NCBI GenBank assembly: GCA_963843145.1
Contig: CAWJJC010000021.1
Coordinates: 32,001-96,000, forward strand
DNA length: 64,000 nucleotides
Direction: 5' to 3'
From: an uncultured delta proteobacterium
GTDB lineage: Bacteria > Desulfobacterota > RBG-13-43-22
The position numbers and the translations under genes were made by a program. This document shows positions 54,370-60,319 of the stretch, one piece after another; within the stretch, counting starts at the first letter, position 1, and every line of letters starts with the position of its first letter. Below the pieces are notes generated by a model that did not search any database, was not told where the DNA came from, and saw nothing but the letters and a program-made list of their open reading frames with translations.

Positions 54370-55887
54370 TCAATTTAACTGGAAAGTCACATAGGACAGG
54401 CCCGCCGCCCGTTCTACTTGGAGAACCACGTAGCTGCCGGGTTTCAGGTGATGCAAGGCCGAATAAAGCGACTCGAGGCTGTTGATGGCCGCTCCATTCA
54501 GGGCGTGAATGATGTCCCCGGTGGTCAGGGAGTTCTTGGTCAACCCGGATGTGGCCGTTTTGGCTACCACGACGACTCCGGAGCCCTGACGAATCCCCGG
54601 AAGGAGCGAAAGGACCTTTTCGTCGACGTTGAGGCCCACAATCCCCAATTTTCGCACCAGGTTCTTTTCAGGGTCCGCCAAATCAAACAGACGATCTACG
54701 TTTTCATGGTGCTCAATGACCTCCACGTCGAAGGACAACTTCTTCGTTCCGCGCAGGACCTCCATTTTGACGTTCTCCCCGGGGTTGACTAGAAAGAAGC
54801 TGATTCCCAAAAGGGGGAGATTGTCGACCGGTCTCCCCTTGACCGTCAGGATGATGTCCTGAATCTTGAGGCCCGCCTTATCGGCGGGAGATCCAGGGGC
54901 CACATCGCTGATAAGGACCCCCCAGTCTCTGGGAAGGCCCAGGCCGGCGGCCATCCCCGGCGAGATGGACTGAACGTGGATGCCGATTACTCCCCGGTGG
55001 AGGTGCCCATATTGACGGAGTTGGGGATAGGCGAAGCGGACGATGGCGCTGGGAATGGCGAATCCCAAGGCCTCATTTCCTCCGGACTGGGTAAGGATGA
55101 AAGTGTTGATCCCCACCAGTTCTCCCTGCACGTTTACCAGCGGACCGCCGCTATTGCCGGGATTGATGGCGGCGTCTGTCTGAATGAAAACCAGTGGACT
55201 ATCAGGTTCGAGCTGACGGGCGACCGCACTCACCACGCCCATGGAAACGGAATTCCGCAGTCCGCTGGGACTGCCGAAGGTGAAAACGATCTCTCCCTGC
55301 CGCAGTCCCTCGTACTTTCCAATGGGCAAGGCCGGCAGTCCCCGGGCCTCCACCTTCAGCAACGCCAGGTCCAATTCGTTTGAGACGCCCACCACGCGGG
55401 CCTCCAGGGTGCGACCTAGGGAGGTAGAACTTGAAAAGGCGGAAGCCCCCTCATCCCCTAAAGAGGACAAAACCACTTGGACCCGGCTCTCGCCGCTGAC
55501 GACATGCGCATTGGTGACGATAAAGCCATCGGGATCGATGATGGCTCCAGATCCAATGCCTCGTTGTTTTCCAAAGACCAAACTCCCTTCTCGATGACTT
55601 TCATCATCCAAAGGCTTGAATCCTGTGACCAGTACCTGCACCACACTCGGGGAAACCTTTCCTACCAGGTCTTCCACGGAAGCATTGAATTGAATAAGGG
55701 CTTCGGAAGCCTGGGCCTTCTGGGCCGAATGTGCCTGCAACTCTCCGGCCAGCAAGGCGTACCCGACGCTGACGATTACGAGTCCTAGTCGCATCCTGCT
55801 CAGTCGAAACAACCGTCCTTGAAATCGGATCCATCCGAAATTCCTCACGTTCAAGTCCGAATTCCCCACTTTATTCTCAGCGATCAT
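54370..55887 (-). CDS. DegP/HtrA family serine protease with two PDZ domains
   Basis: VTNAHVV, DLALLK, TDAAINPGNSGGPL. Confidence 0.93.
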   Translation of the reverse strand: MIAENKVGNSDLNVRNFGWIRFQGRLFRLSRMRLGLVIVSVGYALLAGELQAHSAQKAQASEALIQFNASVEDLVGKVSPSVVQVLVTGFKPLDDESHREGSLVFGKQRGIGSGAIIDPDGFIVTNAHVVSGESRVQVVLSSLGDEGASAFSSSTSLGRTLEARVVGVSNELDLALLKVEARGLPALPIGKYEGLRQGEIVFTFGSPSGLRNSVSMGVVSAVARQLEPDSPLVFIQTDAAINPGNSGGPLVNVQGELVGINTFILTQSGGNEALGFAIPSAIVRFAYPQLRQYGHLHRGVIGIHVQSISPGMAAGLGLPRDWGVLISDVAPGSPADKAGLKIQDIILTVKGRPVDNLPLLGISFFLVNPGENVKMEVLRGTKKLSFDVEVIEHHENVDRLFDLADPEKNLVRKLGIVGLNVDEKVLSLLPGIRQGSGVVVVAKTATSGLTKNSLTTGDIIHALNGAAINSLESLYSALHHLKPGSYVVLQVERAAGLSYVTFQLN

Positions 55888-55967: not shown

Positions 55968-56297
55968 CTAAAAGATGGAATAGGTAATGATGCCGCAGAC
56001 CGCCACCATCAAAATCAAACCCAGGATGAAGGCCCCATCGGCAATTTGTTCCAGGCGAGGCATTCGATGAAGACTGCGCATTCGCAAGGCCCAATAAGCA
56101 CAAAGACAGGAGCAGAGAAAGAAAAGGGCGTCGAGAGAAAGAAGGTCGTCGGCCAAGGTATCGATCTTTAGGGTGGAAATAACCACGCGAATAAGTCCGA
56201 TGACCGTTAGACAGACGCCGACCATGGCGGCGGATACCGAAAAAAGGTGGATGGAAATGTCCTCTTCGAGAGGTTTAGGCATTCTTAGCTGAGGCAT
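55968..56297 (-). CDS. Small 3-TM membrane protein
   Basis: SAAMVGVCLTVIG, ADDLL; three hydrophobic segments. Confidence 0.7.
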   Translation of the reverse strand: MPQLRMPKPLEEDISIHLFSVSAAMVGVCLTVIGLIRVVISTLKIDTLADDLLSLDALFFLCSCLCAYWALRMRSLHRMPRLEQIADGAFILGLILMVAVCGIITYSIF

Positions 56298-56387: not shown

Positions 56388-56837
56388 TTAGGGATGATCT
56401 TCTCTCTTCTTGAACGATTTTCCATCAAATTCCGGATAGAGTATCTTTAGGCAGTCAGGGCAGATCGAATGGCTAAACTTCGCCAGAGAATTTGCACTGA
56501 TATAGTCTTCCAATGTTTTCCAATCAATGTCTTGTCTAATCTTTTTGCAATTGGCGCAGATGGGGATAAACCCTTCAAGAATTCTAATTTCCTTCTCTAA
56601 TCTCTTTCGAAAGTAACAGAACGATGAGAAGATGACCAAGAAATATATTACTAGTTCAAAGATCACCTCCCCTTTTCGCTGAGAGAATTTGGTGGGTTCG
56701 TCGCCGAACAGGTAATGAGGTAAGTCCAGAAGCTCATTGGCTATGGTCAAAAAAACAAATATGGTCAGCATAACTAGAAAAACAACCCAGATTTTCTTGT
56801 GAGCCCGTAAAGGCAATGGATTATGACTTTTTGACAT
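56388..56837 (-). CDS. 2-TM protein with C-terminal Cys/His zinc-binding motif
   Basis: IPICANCKKIR...FSHSICPDC. Confidence 0.8.
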   Translation of the reverse strand: MSKSHNPLPLRAHKKIWVVFLVMLTIFVFLTIANELLDLPHYLFGDEPTKFSQRKGEVIFELVIYFLVIFSSFCYFRKRLEKEIRILEGFIPICANCKKIRQDIDWKTLEDYISANSLAKFSHSICPDCLKILYPEFDGKSFKKREDHP

Positions 56838-56858: not shown

Positions 56859-58961
56859 TTAATCAAATGCGGAGGCGACGATCTGCTGAAGGTCCTTCGG
56901 AGTGGTGGCACCGAGGGCCTCCTGGGCCAGGGCTCGCGCCTGATCAATCGTCACCTGTCGGATAGCGTGACGTACCCGCGCCGCCAGAAATGGATTCAGA
57001 CTGAGGTCCGTCACGCCCAGGCCCACCAACAGGCAGGCGACCACGGGATCACTGGCCGCTTCTCCGCAGACGGTTACGGCCATCCCCCGGTTCACGGCAG
57101 CACGGACTATCCGCTCCGTGGCCCGCAGCACGGAGGGATGGAGAAATGAAAGCACCCCCGAAGGTCCCTGCGATCCACGGTTCATGGTCAAGATGGAGTG
57201 GGCCAGATCGTTGGTCCCGATGGAGACAAAATCCGCGATTTGCAGAATTCCCTGGATATCAAAGGCCGCGGCCGGAGTCTCGATCATGGCTCCGATAGGC
57301 GGTCGTTTGCTCAGTTGCTCGCTTTGCACTACTTCGTCCACCAAGCGGCAAGCCTCGCTCAAATCCGCCACGCCTATGACCATCGGGAACAAGATTTTCA
57401 CGTCACCCCTTGGTGCGGCTCGGAGGATCGCCAGGATCTGGGTGCGGAACATGGTTTTCTCGGCCAGGGAATAGGCCAGACCGCGCAGGCCGGCGCGCAA
57501 AGCCAGATCGGTGGCGATGCCGTCAAAGCGCGGCATCTTGTCCCCCCCGAGATCCATCGTGCGGATGACGACCGGCCGCGGAGCAAGCAGACCGGCTACC
57601 TCGGAATAGGCCGCTGTTTGCGTTTCCAGGTCCGGCGGTCGTTCCGCCTCCAGAAACAGGAATTCCGAGCGAAACAGGCCTACGCCATCCAGTCGATGCT
57701 CCAGGACTAGGCAAGCTTCATCCGGACGGCCGATATTCGCCTGTAACCCGATCGCGACACCATCCTTGGTGATACAGGGCTGGACCGGCTCCTGGGCGGT
57801 GGCCGCCCTGAACAGGGCGGATTGTGTCTGACGCGCCGCAAAGCGCGCCTTCTGGGCCGGGGTCGGGGCTACCGTAACGGTTCCCGCTTCGGCATCCACC
57901 AGCAGCCGGTCCCCGGAGGCCAGCAGCGACGTGGCGTCCTTGATGTCGCAGACTGCGGGAATATGTCTGAATCGGGTCAGGATCGCGACATGCGACGCGG
58001 GGCCCGTTCTCTCGGTGACGATGGCGGCCACAAGGGCCGGATCGATCTGGAGCGCATCGGACAAAAGGAGTTCTTCAGAGACCAAAATGGTTCCCGGCGA
58101 AAGGGCGGACAGGCGGTTCGAGGCCGAATTATTCGAGGTTCTGAGGTGGCGTAGAACTTGATGCCCCAAGTCGCGCACGTCAGCGCTGCGCTCCCGCATG
58201 AATTCCTGTTTCAACCCCTGGAGCCGCCGCTCCATCTCTCGGATCTCGGCCAGGACGGCCTGTTCGCTTCTGACCAGATCCTGAGACACGCGTCGTTTGC
58301 ATTTCTTCGTAAAGGAGGGGTCTTTGAGCATGGCCAGACGCATCTCCACCAGAGCGATCTCATCGTCTGCCTTTTGGCGTTCAAACTGCTTCCGAATGGT
58401 ATCCAACTCGTGGATTGACGCCGCCAAAGCGCAGTCAAAGCGGTCACCCTCCGACTTCACCTCATCCAGAGCAATGTTTGGCTCCCCGAGTGCGGATTCA
58501 GGCTCCGGCAGGTAGACCACGGCCACTCCGTCGGCTAAGCCAGGGGAAACCCCGCGGCCTTGCATGGTCGTGCCTACCAGTCGGGAAAAGGCGCGAAGAT
58601 GCTGCATCTCTTCGTCCTTCGTCGTCAGGTCCTTTTTAATCTGTCTGGTCTCAATGGCTTTTCGGCCTACTAAGTAGGCATATAATGACAAGGCGAGCAC
58701 TTCAATCGCGGCATTGATGCTCTCTAAGGGAAGTAATTCAGGTACCCGCCAATAGACTTCAAAATAGACCCTCAGCACCGGAAGCAAGACGGATAAGATA
58801 TAAGCCAGGGTCCTTGTGCCCATCCAGGCCGCCAGGCCAATCGGCAGAACATAGAGGAGAGGAAAGCGAATATCTCGGCCCGTGACCAAGTCAACGGACA
58901 AGGTAACCAGCGTGACCAGCAGGCAAACGGCTGTGGGGTTCCTCTCGGTGAGCTGTTTCAT
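56859..58961 (-). CDS. PEP-protein phosphotransferase (PTS enzyme I) fused to an N-terminal 4-TM domain (ORF open to 59015)
   Basis: ASHVAIL phospho-His, GVGLFRSEFLFL, VIRTMDLGGDK, MIETP, SIGTNDL, VCGE; hydrophobic N-terminal ~95 aa. Confidence 0.88.
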   Translation of the reverse strand: MKQLTERNPTAVCLLVTLVTLSVDLVTGRDIRFPLLYVLPIGLAAWMGTRTLAYILSVLLPVLRVYFEVYWRVPELLPLESINAAIEVLALSLYAYLVGRKAIETRQIKKDLTTKDEEMQHLRAFSRLVGTTMQGRGVSPGLADGVAVVYLPEPESALGEPNIALDEVKSEGDRFDCALAASIHELDTIRKQFERQKADDEIALVEMRLAMLKDPSFTKKCKRRVSQDLVRSEQAVLAEIREMERRLQGLKQEFMRERSADVRDLGHQVLRHLRTSNNSASNRLSALSPGTILVSEELLLSDALQIDPALVAAIVTERTGPASHVAILTRFRHIPAVCDIKDATSLLASGDRLLVDAEAGTVTVAPTPAQKARFAARQTQSALFRAATAQEPVQPCITKDGVAIGLQANIGRPDEACLVLEHRLDGVGLFRSEFLFLEAERPPDLETQTAAYSEVAGLLAPRPVVIRTMDLGGDKMPRFDGIATDLALRAGLRGLAYSLAEKTMFRTQILAILRAAPRGDVKILFPMVIGVADLSEACRLVDEVVQSEQLSKRPPIGAMIETPAAAFDIQGILQIADFVSIGTNDLAHSILTMNRGSQGPSGVLSFLHPSVLRATERIVRAAVNRGMAVTVCGEAASDPVVACLLVGLGVTDLSLNPFLAARVRHAIRQVTIDQARALAQEALGATTPKDLQQIVASAFD

Positions 58962-59290
58962 GGAACGCAGAGCAGTTGTCAGGTGAGCTTCCCTCCTCCT
59001 ACCATTAGACGCCAATCATAGTTAGGTTAATCCGCAGAGTAAAGAATAGTCTTCAATAAATCATTATTAAACTTAGGAGTACAGGACCATAAAAAGGTTA
59101 AATATCCGATTAAGAACCCTGGTTTCATCCGCCCTAAAAACATCCCTTTTTCAATTCCAGAATAGACTCATTATGCCAAGCGATGAAAGCAAATTTAACC
59201 TAATGAAATACTTCCTGGTCCAAGAGATCATGACTAGGTAAGATTTGAGGATGTTTTATTCGCCAAGTCAACCTGAAGAGGAGGACCCGT

Positions 59291-59800
59291 ATGAAAAAGA
59301 TCATTGTTTTGTTGATTATCTGTTCGATGCTTGTTTTATTTGTTCCCGCCAAACAAGTGGAGGCTCACGGCGGGTTAGGGTGGTTACTTCCCGGATTGAT
59401 TATCGGTGGGGCCATCGGCTTGAGCCTAACCCCTCGATACTACTACCCCCCGCGTTACTATTATCCGCCTCCGGCCTATTATTATCCCCCGCCCGCCTAT
59501 GACTACCCGCCTCCGGCCTATAGTTCACCTCCGCCCCCACCCGATACCTCTTCGAGGGAAAGTGATCAGGCGTCGAAGTCAGGGGGTCGGATCTTCATCT
59601 ACCCCCGCCAGGGTCAGACCCAGGAAAAACTGGAACTGGATCGCAACGATTGCCATAACTGGGTTTTGGGCCAAACAGGATACGACCCGACCAAGCCGCC
59701 GCCCAGCGATATGTCTCTTGCTCAGATAGAACAAGAAAGTGCGGATTACCAGCGGGCCTTGGGAGCCTGCCTGGATGCCCGGGGGTACACGGTGAGATAA
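59291..59800 (+). CDS. Exported Pro/Tyr-rich repeat protein with a two-Cys C-terminal domain
   Basis: Signal peptide, YYYPPP-like repeats, IYPRQGQ...DCHNW...ACLDARGYTV; RBS GAGGAGG. Confidence 0.8.
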   Translation: MKKIIVLLIICSMLVLFVPAKQVEAHGGLGWLLPGLIIGGAIGLSLTPRYYYPPRYYYPPPAYYYPPPAYDYPPPAYSSPPPPPDTSSRESDQASKSGGRIFIYPRQGQTQEKLELDRNDCHNWVLGQTGYDPTKPPPSDMSLAQIEQESADYQRALGACLDARGYTVR

Positions 59801-59878: not shown

Positions 59879-60319
59879 ATGAAAACCAGGACTAAAATAG
59901 TATCGATGCTTGTTTTGATGGTTTTTTGCTTCAGCGCTTATGAGGCCTACGCCTTCGGAGGGCCCGGCAGGCGAGGATCTGAGATGAAGCACCTCAAATG
60001 GGTACTGGCCAAGGCCGGGGTTCCATTGACCGACGACCAGAAAACCCAGATCAAAGGGATTTTTCAGGGAAACCGGGACCAGATAAAGACGGAGCGGACC
60101 GCTTTATTCCAAGCCCGCCGGGCTCTTCAAGCAGCTATTTTATCTGGCAAACTCAATGATCAACAGATCAATGACCAGGTAGCCAAAATGATGCCCCAGA
60201 TCAGTGCCTTGGCGGTGAACCGGGCCGGCCTTTATAATCAAATCGTTTGGGATGTGTTGACGCAGGACCAACAGGCGGCGCTACAAGCCCGTGCCACTTC
60301 CGAACAGGTCCAGCAATAA
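59879..60319 (+). CDS. Spy/CpxP family periplasmic chaperone
   Basis: Signal peptide and two LTxxQ motifs (LTDDQ, LTQDQ). Confidence 0.8.
   Translation: MKTRTKIVSMLVLMVFCFSAYEAYAFGGPGRRGSEMKHLKWVLAKAGVPLTDDQKTQIKGIFQGNRDQIKTERTALFQARRALQAAILSGKLNDQQINDQVAKMMPQISALAVNRAGLYNQIVWDVLTQDQQAALQARATSEQVQQ

Follow-up and report, generated by a model that had tools for sequence, protein, structure and literature searches.

Enzyme I (EI), the entry point of the phosphotransferase system (PTS), is regarded as a soluble cytoplasmic enzyme, and the only sensory form of it that we know of is EI-Ntr, in which the EI core is fused to a GAF domain. What, then, is an EI doing behind four predicted transmembrane (TM) helices? 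The question is raised by a 700-residue protein encoded in a 64,000-nucleotide stretch of DNA from an uncultured delta proteobacterium (assembly GCA_963843145.1, contig CAWJJC010000021.1, positions 32,001 to 96,000 of the forward strand), referred to here in its entirety as the window. The original prediction, made from the letters of the window, proposed a receptor that gates phosphorylation of HPr, or of a non-canonical target, by phosphoenolpyruvate (PEP) in response to a membrane signal. Our analysis places this protein in a distinct EI clade, found in several phyla, that appears to be built like a receptor, with swappable inputs, a conserved junction and an EI core as output, and we put the probability that the protein is a membrane-signal-gated EI feeding the single HPr of its genome at roughly 55%. 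The organisms that carry the fused EI are uncultured, and every functional step discussed below, including sensing by the membrane module, gating of the EI core and the role of HPr as acceptor, is inferred from sequence.

The enzyme I core and the module in front of it

The frame is open over positions 56859..59015 of the minus strand, which gives 718 residues counted from a TTG codon at 59015; this codon lies in frame and adds 18 residues to the version that begins at the ATG, and the alignments of relatives begin at residues close to the ATG. Residues are numbered here in the 700-residue version, Pfam ranges alone being given in the 718-residue numbering. Pfam recognizes the three EI domains in their canonical order (PEP-utilisers_N 152-276, PEP-utilizers 306-378, PEP-utilizers_C 405-688), with scores of 66, 61 and 240 bits for PF05524, PF00391 and PF02896, respectively, all above the cut-offs, and the NCBIfam model TIGR01417 (PTS_I_fam) scores 383.3 bits against a cut-off of 341.7. 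All sequence criteria applied assign the fused protein to the EI family, and it is the equivalog of neither PtsI nor PtsP. In its N-terminal ~135-150 residues Pfam found no domain, GAF included.

The alpha subdomain of EIN is the HPr-binding domain of EI. When the Pfam scores of the fused protein are set against those of the canonical EI of the same genome (108, 88 and 389 bits), divergence is even over the three domains, and the HPr-binding domain is therefore not degraded more than the others. Residues 135-695 align to residues 4-565 of the E. coli EI structures 2KX9 and 2HWG (HMMER, E 6e-75), and through this alignment H189 of E. coli EI corresponds to H324, R296 to R431, R332 to R467, K340 to K475, R358 to R493, E431 to E561, N454/D455 to N584/D585, R465 to R595 and C502 to C632. 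All 50 aligned full-length family members have H324, R431, R467, R493, E561, N584, D585, R595 and C632, and K475 is kept in at least 90% of them. On this evidence the EI core is predicted to be catalytically intact.

The original description of four TM helices followed by a full EI was borne out by hydropathy, by the AlphaFold models and by the Pfam and TIGR01417 matches, and so was its remark that the usual ENPFLG loop, which precedes the R358 equivalent, is replaced; DLALRAG stands there in the fused EI. The set of catalytic residues that it had listed is present in full, as judged from the alignment to E. coli EI and from the 50 relatives, but two of its labels were shifted: in the motif IRTMD, assigned to R296, the arginine corresponds to R332 of E. 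coli EI, R296 itself being represented by R431 in GLFRSEF, and in GLRG, assigned to R332, it corresponds to R358.

Hydropathy and AlphaFold agree on the position of the four helices (TM1 9-27, TM2 34-46, TM3 50-70, TM4 74-99). The N-terminal 138 residues, modelled with an alignment of module relatives, reached a mean predicted local distance difference test (pLDDT) value of 84.3, and the full-length protein, modelled with an alignment of 50 family members, a pLDDT of 85.5 and a predicted template modelling score (pTM) of 0.74. Because basic residues flank TM1 on its N-terminal side, lie between TM2 and TM3 and follow TM4, the predicted topology has both termini of the module on the inner side and a cytoplasmic EI part. 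Four residues of the module, D24, P34, P40 and W46, are invariant among 50 family members, and G28, F33, R64, N83 and E87 are nearly so. In both models the TM4 helix runs unbroken to residue ~129-135, where it is followed by the first strand of EIN; this stalk and the junction behind it are strongly conserved.

A search with the N-terminal 172 residues returned 264 representatives at E<=1e-3 and 63 at E<=1e-10 among 1.84 billion, and Pfam was run on 50 of the 264. Five of these 50 are EI fusions or fragments of such fusions, seven have a histidine-kinase core (HATPase with HisKA, HisKA_2 or HisKA_3, in many cases together with PAS), two carry GGDEF, two carry PAS only, and one has a nucleotidyl transferase ahead of the module; the majority of the others end in the Cys-rich tail described below. 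The same 50 include seven matches to DUF4118 (PF13493) at E<=1e-3, all weak, and 15 of 60 aligned members match it at E<=0.01; one module relative, P0150, passes the DUF4118 threshold with 28.8 bits against 28.4. The module might thus be called DUF4118-like by transitive evidence, as a distant likeness and not as a demonstrated member. A four-TM bundle placed N-terminal to signalling outputs is nonetheless what the helices, and the kinase and GGDEF fusions of the relatives, describe, and the suggestion that the TM segment resembles the DUF4118 inputs of kinases and diguanylate cyclases holds in that form, as a distant likeness of a module whose relatives are fused to such outputs. The four-TM module would accordingly seem to behave like an input module that is re-used across outputs.

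Structural searches gave little that is specific. Foldseek found no match to the N-terminal model in the PDB at E<=1e-3; in a wide VIA-align search the top Z of 10.6 went to designed helical bundles, as is usual for any helical bundle; and in these fold searches neither KdpD nor any other sensor TM domain stood out. In the ESM Atlas, residues 1-135 found hypothetical proteins at best (0.82), and at rank 22 (0.79) a cluster with DUF4118 in 31% of its members, all of these scores being below the 0.9 level and therefore no more than leads. A dimer prediction with two copies of residues 1-140 and the alignment of 50 family members scored 0.01, the mark being 0.42, and has no bearing either way.

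Occurrence of the fusion and exchange of its inputs

The fusion is not peculiar to this assembly. A search with the whole protein found 1741 proteins at E<=1e-3 (8000 scored candidates), and 104 of the 119 other proteins among the matches listed cover at least 96% of the fused EI, at 49-85% identity and lengths of 692-755 residues. The source names of the listed relatives are always 'phosphoenolpyruvate--protein phosphotransferase', and the taxa named include Luteolibacter, Verrucomicrobiales, Deltaproteobacteria, Syntrophales, Brocadiia, Sedimentisphaerales and Candidatus Accumulibacter. The genome collection yielded 17 loci, eight of which (L008-L015, from delta proteobacterium metagenome-assembled genomes (MAGs) and from Calditrichota, Luteolibacter and Verrucomicrobiales) match from residues 1-5 on; five of the eight are intact and full-length, and three (L011, L014, L015) are frame-broken in their assemblies. 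In the remaining nine loci, which are ordinary EIs, the match does not begin before residue ~132 and has an identity of ~30%. Short contigs from soil metagenomes are 95-100% identical to parts of the gene, and one of them (X5 record 14, 58521-58688) reaches from TM4 over the stalk into the beginning of EIN; in sequencing runs the gene was met with shares of at most 0.17 on soil and lake metagenome contigs, none of which spans it whole, and no RNA run was among the holders listed. With 104 near-full-length relatives in several phyla and a bridging metagenome contig, the fusion is real and conserved.

What stands in front of the EI core is not always the same. Six close EI relatives of 676-703 residues carry, instead of the four-TM module, a two-TM module (…WLDEF.DLP..FLG…), and a protein of 1015 residues, P0120, has a receiver and two PAS domains (REC-PAS-PAS) where the membrane module would be, an architecture that would place EI under two-component control. 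The four-TM, two-TM and REC-PAS-PAS forms have in common a junction motif, L(R/C)(A/S)F…T(L/M)(Q/H)GR, with a gap of 5-6 residues. We built an unrooted tree of 44 EI cores (IQ-TREE quick, LG+G4), a small sampling with a long-branch warning among the other EIs; its rows were 19 four-TM forms, three two-TM forms, P0120, eight canonical EIs (the genome's own included), seven EIs from other phyla and, from the same phylum, five GAF-type EIs (L034-L038) and one EIIA(Man)-HPr-EI (L039), with domains checked. The 23 sensor-fused cores fall on one side of a branch of length 0.69 with a support of 100 in the Shimodaira-Hasegawa-like approximate likelihood-ratio test (SH-aLRT), apart from canonical, GAF-type and multiphosphoryl EIs. 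GAF-type EIs group on their own (SH-aLRT 96), and the two-TM forms are nested within the four-TM forms (93).

Taken as a matrix of inputs and outputs, the four-TM and the two-TM modules each occur with the EI clade and with a Cys-rich tail described below, REC-PAS-PAS is combined with the EI clade, and the four-TM module is additionally paired with histidine-kinase and GGDEF outputs. This EI clade therefore appears, from its domain combinations, to behave as the output domain of modular receptors.

A probable regulatory PTS and the case for gating

The genome (5.35 Mb in 32 contigs, 97.9% complete, 6.9% contamination) has a single HPr gene, which lies directly upstream of a canonical EI of 605 residues (contig C17). 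Another contig (C28) carries the cluster rpoN-hpf-ptsN(EIIA-Ntr)-rapZ-EIIA(Man), and a third (C20; L031:2661-4337, minus strand) encodes a 558-residue protein in which a KdpD N-terminal sensor domain (PF02702, 311 bits) is followed by a C-terminal EIIA-Ntr-type domain (PF00359, 69 bits), so that a K+-sensor module is joined to a PTS phospho-acceptor. HPr kinase had no match above threshold in the genome, and no EIIC of PF02378, PF03609 or PF03611 was found there, the other EIIC families lying outside that search. The window, as had been stated, has neither HPr nor EII gene, and the matches in the genome sit on other contigs. Because an EI-HPr pair and EIIAs are present and EIIC is absent in the families searched, the PTS of this genome would seem to have a regulatory make-up without sugar transport, in which the fused EI would be a second EI. 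HPr was present in all five other fusion-bearing genomes checked (6/6 with the present one), and four of the five have a separate EI of ~600 residues.

The fifth of these genomes, G153, to which locus L010 belongs, showed no EI of the canonical type; it was considered as a case in which the fused EI might be the sole EI, and was dropped: its HPr contig (L046, G153:C51:162500-168500) has a GC content of 67.8%, the contig that encodes the fused EI one of 56%, and arguments from its gene content are unsafe because the bin is probably mixed. G153 also holds an open reading frame (ORF) of 723 residues with PEP-utilizers_C. In the present genome, two further observations can be recorded. Small ORFs just upstream of the KdpD-EIIA fusion, on the same strand, contain a DUF4118 end and a GAF fragment, possibly remnants of KdpD. 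A PEP-utilizers_C match at C22:155282-156389 (plus strand) extends over two adjacent frames of 381 and 147 residues, one in-frame TGA included, and could be a frameshifted, broken or recoded PEP-utilizing enzyme.

In the mechanism that we propose, the DUF4118-like four-TM module would lie in the inner membrane, its two ends facing the cytoplasm, and TM4 would extend as a rigid stalk directly into the EIN domain. The EI core would autophosphorylate on His324 from PEP and hand the phosphoryl group to the single HPr, which in turn would serve a transport-less regulatory PTS made up of EIIA-Ntr, EIIA-Man and the KdpD-N/EIIA fusion. The stalk would be altered by an intramembrane or envelope cue, or by a membrane protein acting as partner, and through the stalk the swing of the phosphohistidine domain between the PEP site and HPr would change; in this manner either the PEP-dependent autophosphorylation of H324 or the transfer to HPr would be affected. 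The phosphorylation of EIIA-Ntr, EIIA-Man and KdpD-N/EIIA would then report a membrane cue besides the PEP/pyruvate ratio. As to the nature of the cue, K+ or envelope homeostasis is a guess, made because of the DUF4118-like module, the KdpD-N/EIIA fusion and the neighbouring envelope-protein genes. We favour a receptor because the same EI clade takes two-TM or REC-PAS-PAS inputs at the same junction, and because the genome's PTS looks purely regulatory.

Several observations, however, weigh against this interpretation. The predicted outer loops are of ~6 and 3-10 residues and leave no periplasmic sensor domain, and the module of the fused EI itself scores only 10.3 bits against DUF4118 (E 0.63; threshold 28.4). 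Plain anchoring would fit such short loops equally well. The fused EI gene adjoins neither HPr nor any EIIA. The protein stays below the equivalog cut-offs of both PtsI (NF008382, 308.4 bits against 824) and PtsP (NF008283, 293.8 bits against 583), and the branch of the sensor-EI clade is long, so that it could have another acceptor than HPr. An EI match (best E-value 8.4e-90, against 0 for the fused EI itself; among the matches listed, these begin at residue 100 or later of the fused EI) is present in 140 of the 150 other genomes of this phylum that were sampled, and a member of the sensor-EI clade in none of the 150. Because its distribution over phyla is patchy, the occurrence of the fusion suggests horizontal spread.

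The first alternative is that the module is a mere membrane tether of a constitutively active EI, for example one kept near membrane-bound PTS targets, with no signalling involved. We consider this unlikely. The invariant or nearly invariant polar and helix-breaking residues of the module (D24, P34, P40, W46, N83) would be needless in a simple anchor, as would the strong conservation of stalk and junction, even though the very short outward loops, the absence of a ligand-binding domain and the lack of anything specific in the fold searches are what an anchor would be expected to look like. It can also be said for a tether that the genome already owns a soluble EI for bulk HPr phosphorylation; the same module is, however, fused to histidine kinases and GGDEF cyclases, and in the EI clade REC-PAS-PAS, a regulatory input rather than an anchor, can stand in its place.

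Neighbouring genes, the Cys-rich tail and known systems

The positions of the gene, its parts and its neighbours are collected in Table 1. On the minus strand the fused EI is followed by 22 bp, the gene of a 149-residue protein, 91 bp, a gene for 109 residues, an HtrA/DegP-like protease and a membrane protein of 221 residues, and no terminator-like site was found between the fused EI and the first of these genes. Promoter-like sites numbered 5, against 2.9 +/- 2.1 in shuffles. The protease and the divergent Spy-CpxP-like gene may lend the neighbourhood an envelope-stress flavour, an association that is seen only in close relatives.

Table 1. Positions in the window of the fused EI gene, its predicted parts and the genes around it
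Feature	Position	Strand	Basis or remark
Membrane-fused EI gene	56859..58961	minus	700 residues from ATG at 58961; stop codon 56859-56861
Promoter-like -35/-10 pair	59015..59043	minus	upstream of the ATG start; consensus match, not significant alone
Predicted four-helix membrane module, residues 8-99	58665..58940	minus	hydropathy and two AlphaFold models
Stalk and junction, residues 100-134, RKAIETRQIKKDLTTKDEEMQHLRAFSRLVGTTMQ	58560..58664	minus	models, motif conservation
EIN alpha subdomain (PEP-utilisers_N)	58188..58562	minus	Pfam 66 bits, cut-off 24.4
Mobile phosphohistidine domain (PEP-utilizers)	57882..58100	minus	predicted active-site His324, codon 57990-57992
EIC PEP-binding and dimerisation barrel (PEP-utilizers_C)	56952..57803	minus	R431, R467, K475, R493, E561, N584/D585, R595, C632
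149-residue protein gene, two-TM module and Cys-rich tail (LEGFIPICANCKKIR...FSHSICPDC)	56388..56837	minus	22 bp past the EI stop
109-residue small membrane protein	55968..56297	minus	no family found
HtrA/DegP-like protease (Trypsin_2 and PDZ)	54370-55887	minus	downstream, same-strand cluster
LTXXQ/Spy-CpxP-like periplasmic protein	59879-60319	plus	divergent, upstream of the fused EI
169-residue Pro-rich secreted protein, signal-peptide-like start, Y/P-rich repeats (PPRYYYPPPAYYYPPPAYDYPPPAY)	59291-59800	plus	no family found

The 149-residue protein belongs to a family of 436 relatives, all named 'hypothetical protein', among which no Pfam domain and no solved relative was found. Its tail has an invariant His123 and four Cys, and it matches the alignment of the four-TM module relatives with an hhalign probability of 99.7. 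In that alignment, in fact, a Cys-rich tail of the form LEG.LPIC..CK.IR...W...E.YI..HS.A.FSHG.CP.C is the majority state: nine of 13 inspected 'stand-alone' module relatives of ~180 residues consist of the four-TM module and this tail, which is the commonest partner of the module outside the EI clade. Neither Pfam nor NCBIfam has a family for the tail, which is ~55 residues long (C..C...H..C..C), and no relative of it was found in the PDB. The two-TM loop of the 149-residue protein was matched to the N-terminus of the two-TM EIs with a probability of 84% by hhalign (E 7e-6 over 31 columns), which lends moderate support to a common module; BLASTP of the protein against the two-TM EI P0083 was not significant (E 2.3). 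Because the 5.35-Mb genome holds only five Cys-tail loci, the adjacency of one of them to the fused EI has chance odds of ~1 in 1000, random placement being assumed.

Two further explanations depend on these neighbours, and we hold both to be improbable. According to the first, the fused EI would be a PEP-dependent protein kinase outside the PTS with an acceptor other than HPr, for instance the adjacent Cys-tail protein, whose invariant His123 and four Cys, together with the low odds of chance adjacency and the sharing of both input modules between Cys tail and EI core, are its chief attractions. The retention of an HPr-binding EIN alpha domain whose divergence does not exceed that of the others, and the presence of HPr in 6/6 of the fusion-bearing genomes checked, argue for HPr instead. 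The position of the clade on a long branch and below the two equivalog cut-offs, which would also agree with a different acceptor, has to be read with the knowledge that HPr-like carriers still serve many EI paralogues whose equivalog scores are low. The fused EI gene is indeed unlinked to HPr; its adjacency to the Cys-tail gene, however, is limited to the present locus and two close relatives, and is not seen at L009, L012 and L013. The same limit applies to the gene for 109 residues: both it and the 149-residue gene adjoin EI only in the close relatives L008 and L010, and the neighbours at farther loci are unrelated.

According to the second, the EI clade and the Cys tail would be two outputs of one hitherto unrecognized membrane signalling system, in which the shared four-TM and two-TM receptors are connected to a kinase driven by PEP or else to a small effector of Zn-ribbon type, both kinds being encoded side by side here. 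The fused EI would in this case be a genuine receptor kinase powered by PEP, and the Cys-tail protein would then be the dedicated partner of the EI, as a phospho-acceptor through its invariant His or as a co-receptor through TM-TM pairing, and would partner EI instead of, or besides, HPr. If this were true, such a two-output system would amount to a phosphorelay parallel to two-component systems and run on PEP rather than ATP. Finally, the idea of a chimeric assembly, an overlooked stop codon or a pseudogene in decay, to which only the broken frames of L011, L014 and L015 (relatives in long-read MAGs) could point, is already refuted by a frame open over 700-718 residues, by the 104 full-length relatives from independent sources in several phyla, by the invariance of catalytic and TM residues and by the independent contigs that bridge the junction.

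If a membrane-gated EI that feeds HPr is indeed what the gene encodes, the very first step of the PTS would respond directly to cues from the membrane or envelope, with PEP as the phosphoryl donor. The fused EI would also be a tractable test case for the control of the EI domain swing by an N-terminal signal, and the analysis has revealed an output-like Cys-rich domain, so far undescribed, that goes with the same receptors. A membrane-integral EI with swappable inputs would surprise a PTS specialist. In the full-text literature searched, which included PMC1183210 and had subscription-only papers outside its scope, we found no described membrane-fused EI and no described Cys tail, and in this literature the architecture is, to that extent, not already characterized. 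In passages of a 2008 phylogeny of EI (PMC2405797), the forms listed are GAF-type EI and multiphosphoryl fusions only, and the word 'membrane' is absent from its main text.

Set beside PtsI (2HWG, 2KX9), the fused EI has the same three-domain core with equivalents of all the catalytic residues; it is ~31% identical to the canonical EI of its genome, and differs in the added membrane module and stalk and in the loop that stands in place of ENPFLG. Multiphosphoryl transfer proteins are EI fusions too, with the EIIA(Man)-HPr-EI L039 as an example from the same phylum, but they join successive PTS carriers, whereas the fused EI joins a non-PTS membrane input. The 'hypothetical' proteins made of a four-TM or two-TM module and a Cys tail share both inputs with the EI clade, and have a Cys-rich tail of ~55 residues as output. 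KdpD-like kinases and diguanylate cyclases with a DUF4118-type input likewise place four TM helices at the N-terminus, then a helical stalk, then the catalytic core; their output is an ATP-dependent kinase or a cyclase, and that of the fused EI is predicted to be PEP-dependent.

The closest known counterpart is EI-Ntr (PtsP), which likewise carries a sensory extension at the N-terminus of its EI core and acts as an extra or regulatory EI in a PTS without sugar permeases; the matching rpoN-hpf-ptsN-rapZ cluster is present in the genome of the fused EI. EI-Ntr is modulated by a GAF domain that occupies the corresponding position. The input of EI-Ntr is this soluble GAF, whereas that of the fused EI is a four-TM module with no GAF. 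By analogy, the fused EI presumably works like EI-Ntr, but with an input from the membrane and with the receptor build of the DUF4118 kinases.

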